The notes below the pieces were generated by a model that saw only the letters and a program-made list of their open reading frames with translations, did not search any database and was not told the DNA's origin. A program made the position numbers and the translations under genes. A stretch of DNA of 64,000 bases. Source: an uncultured delta proteobacterium (GTDB taxonomy: Bacteria > Myxococcota > Myxococcia > Myxococcales > 40CM-4-68-19). Below, one piece after another: positions 5,561-11,818 of the stretch; the stretch's first letter is position 1; each line of letters starts with the position of its first letter. Location of the stretch: assembly GCA_963792275.1 (NCBI GenBank), contig CAWBVQ010000003.1, positions 76,892 through 140,891 on the forward strand. The letters run 5' to 3'.

Positions 5561-5622
5561 GGGTGTCGCCCTTCTACCATGTCGATGCTAACAAGGCGGC
5601 TGTGGAGAAATTGATCGCCCGC

Positions 5623-7983: not shown

Positions 7984-10591
7984 CGCGCCAGCTCTGCGGG
8001 CACCGAGCCTTCCGGCGCGACCAGCGCAATCACCTCGCGGGAGGGCGCGAGAATGCGCTGCGCCGCTGCCAGGACCTCGCCCGCGGTGACCGCCGCGATG
8101 CGCTCCGCGTACTTGCTCGAGGCGTCCGCTCCCAGCCCGTAGCATTCGTCGAAGGCGTACACCGCCGCGCGCGCGGAGTTGCGCTGCAGCGAGATGGCGT
8201 GGGTGCCGATCAGGTGCGTCCGCGCCCGCTCCAGCTCGGCGGCCGGTGACCGGTTCCTCGCGCACGCGGCGCAGCTCGGCGCGGATGCCGTCGAGCGCCT
8301 CCTGCGTCTTCCCGGGGCCGCAGCCGATGTAGACGGCGAAGTAGCCGGGGTCCACCCCTTCCATCGAGAAGCTGGTCACGCTGTAGGCGAGGCTCCGCTT
8401 GTCGCGCAGCTCGACGAAGAGCCGCCCGCCCTGCCCCGAGAGCACTGCCGAGAGCACCTCCAGCGGCCAGCGGGCATCGTCGGCGAGCCGCGCTCCGGGG
8501 AAGCCGAGGACGAGGTGCGCCTGCGCCTTGTCCAGCTTGCGCACCGCCGAACGCGGCGCCTCCAGCGGGTCCTCCTGCGGCGGCGAGGGCGTCCGCCGGC
8601 CCGAGGCAACCGACGCAAGCTTCTCGCGCACGAGCCGGCGGACCTGGTCGGGATCCACGTCGCCCACCACCGCCAGCGTCACTCCGCCCGCGGGATACTG
8701 CCGCGCCCTGTACGCCGCGAGCGCTCCGGGGTCGAGCCTGAGGACCGATTCCTCGGTGCCCAGCGAATCGAAGCGGTAGGGATGGCGTGCGGTAGAGCGT
8801 CTCGGAGAAGAGCAGGAAGGCGACGCCGGCGGGGTTGTCCTCCCGGGAACGCAGCTCGTCGATCTGCAGCGTCCGCTCCCGCTGCACCTCCTCCGCATCG
8901 AACGCCGGCGCGGCGATGGCTTCGGCGAAGACGTCGAACCCTTCCGAGAGGTGGCGCGAGAGGAGCTCCGCGCGCAGGCCGAAGCTGTTGCGGCCGGCGT
9001 TGCCGCCGATGGAGCCGCCCATCGCTTCCATCTCGCGCACGAGCTGGGTGGGCCCGCGGCTGCGCGTGCCCTTGGAGACGAGGCGCGCGAGCAGCATGTT
9101 GATGCCCGCGTTGTCCGCGCTCTCCGCGCGCAGTCCTCCCTCCCAGGCGGCGCGCAGGGCCACGAGCGGCACCGCCCGCTCTTCCTTGATCAGCAGCACT
9201 CCCCCGCCGGGAAGCTCCTCGCGGACGAGCGGTCCGGTCCTGGCCTGCGCCGCGAACCTCACCGGTGCGCGCTTTTCCGGCGCCGCTCCCGAGCTGGCGG
9301 CGGGCTGCGGCGCAACCCGGCCTCCCTGCCGGAGCAAGTCGCGCAGCTCCGCCTCGCCCGGCCCATCGCCCTCGGGCAGGAGCGCCGCCAGCACCGGCGC
9401 CGCCGGATCCAGCCAGCGCTCCGCAGCCTCGCGCAGCCGGCCCGGCGTGAGGTTTGCCACCTGCTCCAGGTAGCGCTCCTCGAACTCCAGACCGCCCGCG
9501 CTCGACTGGTAGAAGCCGAGCTTGCGCGCCTGTCCCTGCACGGTCTCGCGCTGGTAGACGGCGTCGGACTCCAGGAGCCTGCAGGCGTTGGAGAGCTCCT
9601 CCGCGCTCACCTCTTCCCAGCGCAGCCGGTACGTCTGCGCCAGCGCCTCCGTCACCGCCTCGCGCACCGTCGCGGGCTGCAGCGTCAGGCCCACGATGGT
9701 GAGGCCGGGATCGACCGGCGTGTAGCAGCTCGCCTGCACCTCGGTGCAGAGGAGCCGGTCGCGCTTGAGCGCCCGGTGGAGCCGCGACGCCTCGCCGTGG
9801 CCGAGGATGATGGACATGGCGTCGAGCGCCGCCACGTCGTCGTGCACCAGCGGCGGCGCCGGCCAGGCGATGGAGAGGTACCCTTCCTTGAGCGGCTCGC
9901 GCTTGAGGATCGCCGCGGGCTCTTCGCGCCGCGGCTCCGGCGGCCTGTCCGGCGCCGGCTCGAACGCGCTCTGCGGCCAGGCGAAGAGCTTTTGCGCGAG
10001 TTGCACCGCCTCCGCCTCGCGCACGTCGCCCACCACCACCACCACCGCATTCTCCGGCCGATACCAGCGCCGGTAGAAGCGAAGGATGCCCTCGCGGGTG
10101 AAGCTGCGGACGCTCTCCTCGGTGCCGATCACCGGCTTGCCGTAGGGGTGGCGCAGGAAGGCGCTGGCAAAGAGCTCGCGGGACAGCTTGCGGGTGGGCG
10201 AATCCTGGCTGCGCTTGATCTCCTCGCAGACCACCTCGATCTCCCGCTGCAGCTCCTCGGGATCGAAGGCCGCGCTGGTCACCGCGTCGGCGAGCACGTC
10301 CATGCCTTCGGCGAAGAAGCGGGAGGCCAGCACCACGTGGTAGACGGTCTGGTCGAAGCTGGTCCAGGCATTGATCTCGCCGCCGCAGGCCTCGATGGTG
10401 CGCGCGATCTCGCCCGGGCCGCGGCGCGCAGTGCCCTTGAAGAGCATGTGCTCGTGCAGGTGGGCGAGGCCGGCCTCGTCCTCCCGCTCGTCGGCGCTGC
10501 CCACGCGTACCCAGACCTGGATGGCCACCACCTGCGCGGCGTGGTTTTCCTCGACCAGCAGGGTCAGCCCATTTGCGAGCGCATGTCTCAC
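7980..10591 (-). pseudogene. Tandem M16 (pitrilysin/insulinase-family) zinc peptidase of about 870 aa; frame breaks near 8786 and 8246
   Basis: The N-terminal half carries the inverted zinc motif HLHEHMLFKG plus RHPYGKPVIGTEESV. The second half repeats the fold (GINMLLARLVSKGT..., then after a shift HPYRFDSLGTEESVLRLDP...). After a second shift the C-terminus reads AAELERARTHLIGTHAISLQRNSARAAVYAFDECYGLGADA...PEGSVPAELAR*. Confidence 0.85.
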
Positions 10592-10764
10592 CGGAGAGAG
10601 CCTAGCAGCGCGCGGACCGCCGCGCCGCCGCTTTCGGCACGACCGTCAGCCAGCAGACCGGCCAACCATGGCCGGCGCTTTCACGTGGACGTGAGCGTGC
10701 GACGTCGCCGTCGCCGTCGAACGTCAACCAGGCCCGGATGCGACGAACTGAAGCGCCACGGGCA

Positions 10765-10971
10765 CTACAAATCCGCGGGGCGCAGGGTGCTGCGGCCGTT
10801 TTCCTTCGCGCGCGACACTGCCTTCTCCACCGCGGCGCGCACGTGCTCGGAGAGGGCGCTGATGAACTCGTCCGAGGTGCGCATCTCCTTCTCGCGGATC
10901 AGATCGCGGACCTTGCTCTGCACGATCAGGAGACCGGTCGAATCCTTCTTGACCTCGGTGTTCTCGCTCAT
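10765..10971 (-). CDS. Bacterial histone-fold protein, alpha3-truncated singlet (68 aa)
   Basis: MSENTEVKKDSTGLLIVQSKVRDLIREKEMRTSDEFISALSEHVRAAVEKAVSRAKENGRSTLRPADL*. This aligns by eye to archaeal HMfB ([57 protein letters not shown]). It has a short alpha1, an (R)xSD loop, a long alpha2 and the GR(K/S)T..xD L2 motif. It then stops, so alpha3 is missing. Confidence 0.6.
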   Translation of the reverse strand: MSENTEVKKDSTGLLIVQSKVRDLIREKEMRTSDEFISALSEHVRAAVEKAVSRAKENGRSTLRPADL

Positions 10972-11004
10972 GGCGCGCTGCTCTAGCAGAGGAGCCGCTC
11001 GCTT

Positions 11005-11818
11005 TCAACGCCCGAGGAACTCCCGCGCCGCGCGGAAATCGGCGGGCACCGGCGCCTGGAGACGAAGGTCGCCCCCGTCGGGGTGCCGCAGCGAGAGCGA
11101 GAGGGCGTGCAGCAGCGGCCGCGACAGCTCGTGCCGCAGCCCGTCCTTGCGGGTGAGAAACGCGGGCCCGCCGTACGCCTTGTCGCCCAGGAGCGGGCAA
11201 CCCAACTCGCGCAGGTGGATGCGGATCTGGTGCGTGCGCCCGGTCTCCGGAAAGGCGGCGAGCTCGGCGCGCCACCGCGTAGCGCTCCACCAGGCGAAAG
11301 CGCGTGCGCGCGGGCCGCGAATCCACCGGCGACTCGACCACGCCTTCCGCCGCTGCCGGAGCGCCGAGCACGAGCGCGCGATACTCCTTGGCGGCGCGAT
11401 GCGCGCGGAACTCCTCCAGCAGCGCCGCCTGCGCCCGCCGCGTGCGCGCCAGCACGGTGACGCCGGTGGTGCCGCGGTCGAGGCGGTGGACCAGGAGCGC
11501 CTGCGCGTCCTTCTCGCCGAGGGAGCGCAAGAGCGCGCTGCAGAGATCGGGCAGCGCGGCGCCGCCCGCGAGATCCTCCTGCGCCGCCAGGCCGGCGGGC
11601 TTGTCCACCGCCAGCACCGACCGATCGAGATGGATCACGCAATCGCGGGTGAGCGGAGGCGCCTCGGCCTGGTGCAGCGCCACCTCCACGCGGTCTCCGG
11701 GCCGCAGCGGGCGGTCCGCCTCGCGCACGCGCTTGCCGCGGACGAACGCACCGCCCCCCGCGATGGCCCGCTGCGCCTGCTCTTCGGAGATGCCGCCGCG
11801 CCGCACCACGAAGGGCAA
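11005..11818 (-). pseudogene. RluA-family 23S rRNA/tRNA pseudouridine synthase; frame break near 11266
   Basis: An S4-like N-terminus is followed by VLAVDKPAGLAAQ and the catalytic motif LLVHRLDRGTTGVTVLART. After a shift it reads ELAAFPETGRTHQIRIHLRELGCPLLGDKAYGG...LLHALSLSLRHPDGG. The TTG start at 11818 is tentative. Confidence 0.85.

Follow-up and report, generated by a model that had tools for sequence, protein, structure and literature searches.

The window, by which we mean the whole stretch of 64 000 nucleotides that was analysed, contains a small gene at positions 10765..10971 on the (-) strand, with an ATG start, 68 codons and a TAG stop. Its product, MSENTEVKKDSTGLLIVQSKVRDLIREKEMRTSDEFISALSEHVRAAVEKAVSRAKENGRSTLRPADL, is a protein of 68 aa with a predicted mass of 7.6 kDa and a pI of about 8.1, rising to 9.5 for the core of residues 14-68. 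The ORF and the sequence quoted for it in a preliminary description of this DNA agree exactly with the ORF listing and its translation. An in-frame TGA lies 11 codons 5' of the ATG with no ATG, GTG or TTG between them, so the start codon is unambiguous. The 5' neighbour is a PseudoU_synth_2 (RluA-type) gene and the 3' neighbour encodes a double M16 peptidase. Both were identified by nucleotide-level synteny with annotated contigs and by tblastn with intact orthologues, which bears out the earlier naming of an rRNA pseudouridine synthase and an M16 peptidase at these positions. Both flanking genes are frameshifted in the window relative to the intact orthologues, and the assembly behind the window seems to be prone to indels and is probably a long-read one. 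The small ORF itself is intact despite its frameshifted neighbours, and is identical to short-read versions.

This 68-codon ORF is a real gene. Homologues of the protein number 94 at E<=1e-3, nearly all of them 64-71 aa long and nearly all labelled as Myxococcales or Deltaproteobacteria MAGs, and the identical 68-aa protein is present on 10 independent contigs. Comparison of a 53-codon core with the closer orthologues (L002-L015) gives dN/dS values of mostly 0.03-0.06 (dS 0.4-1.1, dN 0.017-0.056), this range holding at dS 0.4-0.8, and the ORF is thus under strong purifying selection. The GC3 of 91 % is the same as in the neighbouring genes (GC content of the window, 71 %), which indicates that the gene is native and not recently transferred. 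An origin by horizontal transfer or from a mobile element is ruled out by this native GC3 together with housekeeping synteny across 27 species-level genomes. The NCBI label for the protein is 'hypothetical protein', and some JGI records carry 'predicted lactoylglutathione lyase'.

The gene order Zn_ribbon_8 / PseudoU_synth_2 / histone / M16 / PrmA / RsmE is conserved in at least 27 Myxococcales-labelled species-level MAGs; the scan that yielded these 27 orthologous loci gave identities of 60-100 %. All close relatives are MAGs labelled Myxococcales or Deltaproteobacteria, in line with the Myxococcota-like genome proposed at the outset. As far as a scan of a genome collection shows (one genome per species, with two peptide patterns as queries), the close clade is confined to uncultured Myxococcales-labelled soil MAGs. 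Outside it, the cultured actinomycete Salsipaludibacter albus AS10 also encodes a relative. Many relatives have an extra alpha/beta-hydrolase gene between the histone and M16 genes, and the neighbourhood is therefore not a tight functional unit.

Comparison of the 80 nt upstream of the gene in the window and in 27 orthologous loci reveals TTGAAA without variation, then a stretch that is always 17 nt long but differs in sequence, and then TC-TG(C/T)-TA, in the window and 19 of the 27 loci. In the window the putative -35-like hexamer TTGAAA lies at 11003..11008 on the (-) strand; the TGA within it (11005-11007) also terminates the pseudouridine synthase reading frame upstream. A conserved, putative extended -10-like element, TGC-TAGAGC, follows at 10980..10988 (-). 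The arrangement TTGAAA-N17-TGnTAGAGC is promoter-like, and would be the expected pattern of a sigma-70-type promoter with an extended -10. A sigma-70 consensus scanner called no promoter in the region upstream of the gene, because the -10-like TAGAGC departs from the usual final T, ending in C where the scanner demands a T.

The distance from the -10-like element to the ATG is only 8 nt (AGCGCGCC, 10972-10979), and there is no Shine-Dalgarno sequence within it. This layout (consensus RSCGCGCC) is common to the window and the 11 closest loci. Eight remoter loci have the same promoter-like motif but leaders of 22-48 nt with Shine-Dalgarno sequences of the GGAGG/GGAG type. The short gap and the lack of a Shine-Dalgarno sequence in the window place the predicted transcript start 0-3 nt from the ATG, and the gene may thus be translated from a leaderless mRNA or one with a leader of <=3 nt. 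The layout TGnTAnnnn-N7-start recurs at the M16 gene start at 10591 and at the gene start at 5602, both of which are N-termini confirmed by orthologues. Across the window there are nine such sites, against three in a reversed-sequence control.

Downstream, 173 nt (10592-10764) separate the gene from the GTG at 10591. This gap and a GC hairpin within it had both been described previously, and both are present, although the hairpin coordinates had been given one base off: a 7-bp stem with a 4-nt loop (CCGGCCA/TGGCCGG) occupies 10658-10664/10669-10675 (-). A terminator scan of the hairpin found no U-tract and called no terminator, and the predicted fold of the 3' region is no better than that of shuffled sequences (z = -1.05). 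The hairpin is not conserved in orthologous loci and gave no Rfam match. A role as a terminator or RNA element is rejected on these four results, and the hairpin is probably not a functional part of the locus.

Searches of Pfam and NCBIfam, with the single sequence and with 37 family members, gave no match at the curated cut-off. Matches below it include DUF5805 in 25 of the 37 members (best 4e-4) and weak similarities to CBFD_NFYB_HMF, CENP-S/X, DUF1931, Arc and Arg_repressor. A check against the CBFD_NFYB_HMF and DUF1931 profiles had been suggested, and yielded sub-threshold matches only; taken by itself, it would have seemed to speak against a histone. These libraries therefore neither confirm nor refute a histone assignment, which rests instead on direct comparison with solved structures. 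With the single sequence as query, phmmer found the alpha3-truncated histones HTkC of Thermococcus kodakarensis (2.5e-8, score 37.1), HLp of Leptospira perolatii (6e-7, 32.8) and HBb (Bd0055) of Bdellovibrio bacteriovorus (8e-6, 29.3); all four entries known for alpha3-truncated histones were recovered, and no other match was significant. Use of a profile built from the 37 family members improved these matches to 3.1e-14 (56.1 bits), 1.8e-13 (53.6 bits) and 2.2e-9 (40.5 bits), respectively. The archaeal histone HMfA was matched marginally (E 0.16).

The AF2 single-chain model (pLDDT 82.6) contains a helix at residues 6-27, confident from about residue 14, a second at 34-57 and a stub at 65-67. 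A Foldseek search of the PDB with this model placed HLp first (TM 0.84, rmsd 1.8), followed by HTkC and HBb; the remaining matches were archaeal and eukaryotic histones only. Identity in these structural alignments is 44 % for HBb, 43 % for HTkC and 38 % for HLp, and does not separate the HTkC/HLp class from the HBb class. The PDB entry for HLp bears the label 'DUF1931 domain-containing protein', which is only a name. For P0095, a natural 122-aa doublet relative, the AF2 model is of low confidence (pLDDT only 60), and its best Foldseek matches are histone dimers of the pseudodimeric or single-chain kind (1F1E, H2A-H2B chimeras, AQ328), a tentative hint at the handshake dimer for which this doublet served as a proxy.

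Alignment of the family profile to HMfB with hhalign runs from L1 (RTSD/RVSD) through L2 (GRST/GRKT) to the clamp Asp. It opens one gap, of 4 residues, in alpha2 and breaks off at residue 60 of the 69 in HMfB, where the query ends. A by-eye alignment to HMfB, with alpha2 one turn shorter, had been proposed before and is reproduced here. The accompanying statement that there is no alpha3 holds in so far as the helix is truncated, but one turn, P65-L68, remains (DSSP helix 65-67), and the chain ends one residue past the clamp residue D67. HMfB and HMfA (PDB 1A7W, 1B67) thus share the L1 RxSD and L2 GR(K/S)T...D motifs with this protein, at a TM of about 0.5, but have an alpha2 that is 4 residues longer and an alpha3 of about 10 residues rather than one turn. 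With alpha3 cut to one turn, the protein cannot make the four-helix-bundle interface on which hypernucleosomes depend.

The alpha3-truncated superfamily is defined by the histone fold alpha1 - L1 - long alpha2 - L2 (Schwab 2024, PMC11390915), an alpha3 of 3-4 residues compared with about 10 in nucleosomal histones, an alpha2 shortened by 4-5 residues relative to the nucleosomal type, and an R-x-T-x4-D motif in L2 with an RD clamp (PMC11390915). All four features are found in the 68-aa protein, and the L2 motif, R60-S61-T62-...-D67, is invariant in the 37 homologues. By comparison, a nucleosomal histone does not fit, as alpha3 is truncated and PF00808 matched 4 of the 37 members below the cut-off (best E 0.024). 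Nor does a DUF1931 pseudodimer, as the protein is a single 68-aa fold and PF09123 matched two of the 37 members, also sub-threshold (best E 0.0017). Assignment as an alpha3-truncated singlet histone-fold protein is therefore supported. The preliminary description had reached the same fold and had put the protein forward as a candidate chromatin protein, a proposal upheld by the matches to HTkC, HLp and HBb and by an AF2 model that matches histones only.

Within the gene, read on the (-) strand, the N-terminal tail (residues 1-13, MSENTEVKKDSTG) is encoded at 10933..10971. It has a pLDDT of 50-71 in the model and is probably disordered; the equivalent residues of HLp are unresolved in crystals (PMC12701072). 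Conservation of the tail pattern M-x-E...KK does not extend beyond the Myxococcales clade. Helix alpha1 (residues about 14-27; 10891..10932) is delimited by the alignment and the AF2 model and contains the invariant Q18-S19-K20 together with R22 and R26, a set that aligns to the HLp DNA contacts S14, K15, K17 and K21. Loop L1 (residues 28-33, KEMRTS; 10873..10890), placed by the alignment, the model and hhalign, includes the invariant R31, and T32, which aligns to the beta-bridge DNA contact T27 of HLp. In the model and the hhalign result, helix alpha2 (residues 34-57; 10801..10872) is 4 residues shorter than in HMfB; near its end is the invariant R54, aligned to the tetramer determinant R45 of HTkC and R49 of HLp. 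Loop L2 and the alpha3 stub (residues 58-68, NGRSTLRPADL; 10768..10800), from the alignment and the model, contain the invariant residues N58, G59, R60, S61, T62, L63, R64 and D67. R60 and D67 form the RD clamp, and N58 and R60 align to the HLp tetramer residues N53 and R55.

Two main groups of alpha3 histones are distinguished, the face-to-face (FtF) histones, which form toroidal tetramers, and the 'bacterial dimers' such as HBb/Bd0055; the latter are recognized by their lack of R48 and N52, residues of the dimer-dimer contact in FtF histones (PMC11390915). In the crystal tetramer of HLp, R49, S52 and N53 contact F63, T61 and R55 (PMC12701072). R45 of HTkC forms a bridge to the C-terminal carboxylate of the dimer opposite, and an R45A variant elutes as a dimer (bioRxiv 10.64898/2025.12.06.692711). 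In the gap-free alignment to HLp, its residues R49, N53 and R55 and the clamp residue D62 correspond to R54, N58, R60 and D67, none of which varies among the 37 aligned homologues, and HTkC R45 aligns to R54 in the single-sequence alignment. On this alignment the Myxococcota 68-aa histone carries the FtF signature residues. The pair R(-6) and N(-2), the Arg at the end of alpha2 and the Asn two positions ahead of the loop Arg, is present in 154 of 182 domains of the nearest 148 representatives in a library of 1.8 billion proteins. Three residues of the secondary HLp interface are changed here (S52->E57, T61->A66 and F63->L68).

HLp (PDB 9QT0/9QT1/9QT2; PMC12701072) is one of the closest known systems. 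The alignment to it is gap-free over 55-59 residues, with about 38 % identity; it is the best structural match, and the two share the short alpha2, the one-turn alpha3, the core charge, the tetramer triad, the clamp (R55-D62 in HLp, R60-D67 here) and an end one residue past the clamp Asp. HLp differs in having about 7 disordered N-terminal residues rather than a 13-residue acidic/basic tail, and belongs to another phylum; its gene adjoins smc, map and a DUF350 gene, and the host Leptospira is without HU. HTkC (PDB 9F2C; PMC11390915) is the best sequence match (43 % identity, rmsd 1.3) and has the critical Arg in common, but it has a 2-residue insertion in L1, E at the N58 position and a longer C-terminus past the clamp region, and is an archaeal protein that coexists with the nucleosomal histones HTkA/B. 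HBb/Bd0055 (PDB 8CMP, 8FVX, 9EZZ; PMC10627809, PMC11317129) is a bacterial singlet of similar size with a short alpha2, an S-K motif on alpha1 and the GR(K/S)T...D loop; it is a dimer that bends DNA.

Of the nine HLp residues that contact DNA, seven have an identical or conservatively substituted counterpart in the 68-aa protein. S14, K15, T27 and T57 correspond to the identical S19, K20, T32 and T62, and K17, K21 and T56 to the conservative replacements R22, R26 and S61, while A13 and G29 are altered to Q18 and D34. The core has 11 basic and 9 acidic residues (+2, pI 9.5), the same charge as in HLp, HTkC and HBb. The full-length protein is near neutral, with a net charge of +1, because the N-terminal tail is acidic.

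These observations point to a nucleoid-associated alpha3-truncated histone of the FtF subclass that forms tetramers and wraps DNA, a reading to which we give a probability of roughly 70 %. Two chains would form the classic head-to-tail histone-fold (handshake) dimer via crossed alpha2 helices, and two dimers would then associate through two equivalent interfaces into a toroidal closed homotetramer. Each interface would be made up of the C-terminal end of alpha2 (R54), L2 (N58 and R60) and the C-terminal stub (D67-L68-COOH). As the tetramer determinants are invariant, the protein is likely to close into a homotetramer with about 60 bp of DNA wound round it, rather than to coat DNA end-on or bend it; the case for this tetramer comes only from conservation of the interface residues. 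A ring of basic and polar residues, with S19/K20 at the paired helix ends, R22 and R26 on alpha1, and T32 and S61/T62 at the L1-L2 beta-bridge, could bind the DNA backbone with no sequence specificity. About 60 bp of DNA would wrap once round the tetramer, resulting in chromosome compaction. Expression would be from the gene's own conserved sigma-70-like promoter with an extended -10, and translation in this lineage would probably be from a leaderless mRNA.

Dimeric behaviour of the HBb/Bd0055 type, in which a stable dimer bends DNA sharply or coats it end-on and neither forms tetramers nor wraps DNA, is the precedent that had been invoked originally, and we consider it unlikely, though it is the most plausible of the other explanations. 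Similarity to HBb is significant, both with the single sequence (8e-6) and with the profile (2.2e-9). Foldseek aligns the two at 44 % identity (rmsd 1.1-1.9), and both have a truncated alpha3 and, on alpha1, an S-K motif. Bacterial dimers have, moreover, been listed for 'Myxococcota_A' (Schwab 2024, PMC11390915). FtF histones too have been reported from Myxococcota (Schwab 2024, PMC11390915; Hu 2025, PMC12701072); a text search of the supplementary files of Schwab 2024 found no match for Myxococcota or Nitriliruptor. Against the dimer, the family profile scores 13-16 bits better to the two FtF structures, HTkC and HLp, than to HBb. The 37 aligned homologues all keep R54 and N58, the counterparts of R48 and N52 in the FtF logo, whereas HBb carries S and D there, so that the mark of a bacterial dimer is missing. 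Mutation of the equivalent Arg of HTkC turns the tetramer into a dimer, which argues that R54 is retained for tetramerization. The HBb precedent is accordingly replaced by the FtF tetramer signature of HLp and HTkC.

Less probable still is recruitment of the histone fold to another task, as a locus-specific regulator or a scaffold with the ribosome- and RNA-modification neighbours (RluA-like, PrmA, RsmE). The conserved position among translation-related housekeeping genes would accord with such a role, as would the near-neutral overall charge with its acidic tail and the weak sub-threshold Pfam similarity to the Arc and Arg_repressor DNA-binding domains; nor need every prokaryotic histone-fold protein organize genomes (Schwab 2024, PMC11390915). 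The Arc and ArgR matches are, however, far under the cut-offs, the residues that contact DNA in the HLp crystals are conserved, and the basic charge of the core is that of characterized alpha3 histones. The gene is also preceded by a promoter-like motif of its own instead of being translationally coupled to the genes beside it, and in many relatives the hydrolase gene stands between it and M16. That there is no gene at all, the ORF having arisen by chance in GC-rich DNA or through errors of the assembly, is scarcely credible. Spurious long ORFs are common in high-GC genomes, an 82-codon ORF overlaps this one on the opposite strand, several frameshifts occur in the neighbouring genes of the window, and no Pfam family is assigned. 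This explanation is nevertheless already refuted by the results on selection and homology: the low dN/dS with saturating synonymous change and high GC3 in frame, the identical copies on independent contigs, the 94 homologues, and the significant matches to solved histones.

If the protein is an FtF histone that wraps DNA, it may also be a major, constitutive and highly expressed chromatin protein of a widespread soil Myxococcota lineage with a large genome of 71 % GC, made from a leaderless mRNA under a near-consensus promoter with an extended -10, and forming 'tetrasomes' of about 60 bp on part of the chromosome, possibly alongside HU/IHF. We put this forward tentatively, as the less probable extension of the FtF reading; DNA wrapping and abundance are suggested by analogy with characterized histones, with indirect support from the seven conserved DNA-contact residues and the core pI of 9.5. 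A tblastn search for HU/IHF found none in the window and 46 loci, which amount to only about 0.5 Mb from many genomes.

Bacterial histones have been characterized only from 2023 on. To our knowledge, only two, HBb and HLp, have both a solved structure and biochemistry. The gene described here brings in a third phylum with a well-supported FtF-type member that escapes Pfam, and illustrates that routine annotation misses or mislabels this histone family. It also offers a residue-level hypothesis, in which R54, N58 and R60 would determine the tetramer, and a defined candidate promoter. The current picture is unchanged, as the family, the wrapping mechanism and the presence in Myxococcota have already been published (PMC11390915, PMC12701072); the expectation that the role of such a protein in Myxococcota would be new experimental territory holds, but the occurrence of FtF histones there was already on record. 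Specific to this clade are the Pfam-invisible and mis-annotated state of the protein, the conserved N-terminal tail, and a promoter-like motif with a dichotomy between leaderless and Shine-Dalgarno-led genes in sister lineages. The lineage is uncultured, which makes direct in vivo tests hard. If the protein is indeed a major chromatin protein, wrap-type histone chromatin would extend from Leptospira to free-living Myxococcota, and the sister lineages would provide a natural comparison of leaderless and Shine-Dalgarno-led versions of the same histone gene.

The motif TGnTAnnnn lies 6–9 nt before several gene starts in the window, without a Shine–Dalgarno sequence; this arrangement occurs at 9 sites, as against 3 in a reversed-sequence control. 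One copy (10599–10607, minus strand) precedes the GTG at 10591 of the M16 peptidase gene and another, TGCTAACAA, precedes the GTG at 5602 on the plus strand, where further candidates are found at gene starts 15566, 29608 and 50530. Two of the starts preceded by the motif match the N-termini of orthologues. From the pattern at these gene starts, extended −10 promoters with leaderless transcripts may be common in this lineage.

Comparison with intact orthologues in loci L049 and L050, both from short-read MAGs, reveals that genes near the histone gene in the window shift frame once or twice. The changes fall in the PseudoU_synth_2 gene (at about 11283), the M16 peptidase gene (about 8780 and 8243), a 264-aa gene (about 5824) and a fumarase-like gene (about 3616 and 4640). 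Gene calls are broken up in a similar way in L047 and L048, two ENA contigs that encode the histone identical to that of the window. The frame changes in the window look like indel errors of long-read assembly, rather than pseudogenes.

In most relatives there is an additional gene between the histone and M16 genes, directly 3′ of the histone gene (loci L003, L004, L006, L008, L010 and L013–L027); it is absent from the window (10592–10764) and from L001, L002, L005, L007, L009, L011 and L012. Translation of the downstream DNA reveals a conserved ...LLLLHGLGDSLAGWAQV... in this gene, which apparently encodes an alpha/beta hydrolase. In L002, the closest short-read relative, a GC-rich unit of about 57 nt (GGAGGAGCGGGCTTTGCCCGCGACGGGCGGAGGCCGCAGGCCGCAGCATTGGC...) stands in three tandem copies across the ~190 nt that follow the stop codon of the histone gene and fills the intergenic region; the window lacks these copies.

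With the protein encoded at 10768–10971 and its family as queries, 25 of the 37 family members gave weak matches to DUF5805 (Pfam PF19121), an uncharacterised family of 67 residues, all below its cut-off of 28.5 bits (best E-value 4e-4). DUF5805 itself may consist of alpha3 histones that have gone unrecognised. Many homologues (for example proteins P0001, P0012, P0031, P0032 and P0042, among others) carry database labels of several kinds: 'predicted lactoylglutathione lyase' for many and 'histone H3/H4' for others at JGI, and 'hypothetical protein' at NCBI. The lyase name evidently arose by misannotation and then spread through the homologue cluster.

Some relatives with the alpha3 histone fold (P0098, P0103, P0109, P0130, P0211 and P0241) have a hydrophobic, signal-peptide-like N-terminus, and P0130, P0211 and P0241 contain an additional RRM-like segment, K(L/I)F(V/I)G(G/N/E)L. 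Features of this kind would be unusual in a protein that packages DNA.

Among the 148 representatives nearest in the library, 36 are doublets of about 120 aa, each with two alpha3-truncated histone folds and the FtF signature (P0095, P0096, P0099, P0101, P0102 and P0107, among others; locus L051). They retain the S-K and R-x-T motifs. For bacteria, a review on double histone folds published in 2026 gives doublets of the DUF1931 type only. A low-confidence model of P0095 (single-sequence AF2, pLDDT 60), a protein known from a single contig of 972 bp, matched pseudodimeric histones.

The C-terminal half, KRAKENGRSTLRP(Y/A)DL, is near-identical in the Myxococcales clade, in Nitriliruptorales of the Actinomycetota (L031–L036 and L039–L045) and in Aenigmatarchaeota, Nanoarchaeota and Altiarchaeales MAGs (DPANN and other archaeal loci L028–L030, L037, L038 and L046). 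Actinomycetota are not named where published summaries, in the portions available, set out the main bacterial FtF lineages. One of the Nitriliruptorales loci, L040, belongs to the cultured Salsipaludibacter albus AS10, which would provide a culturable model.
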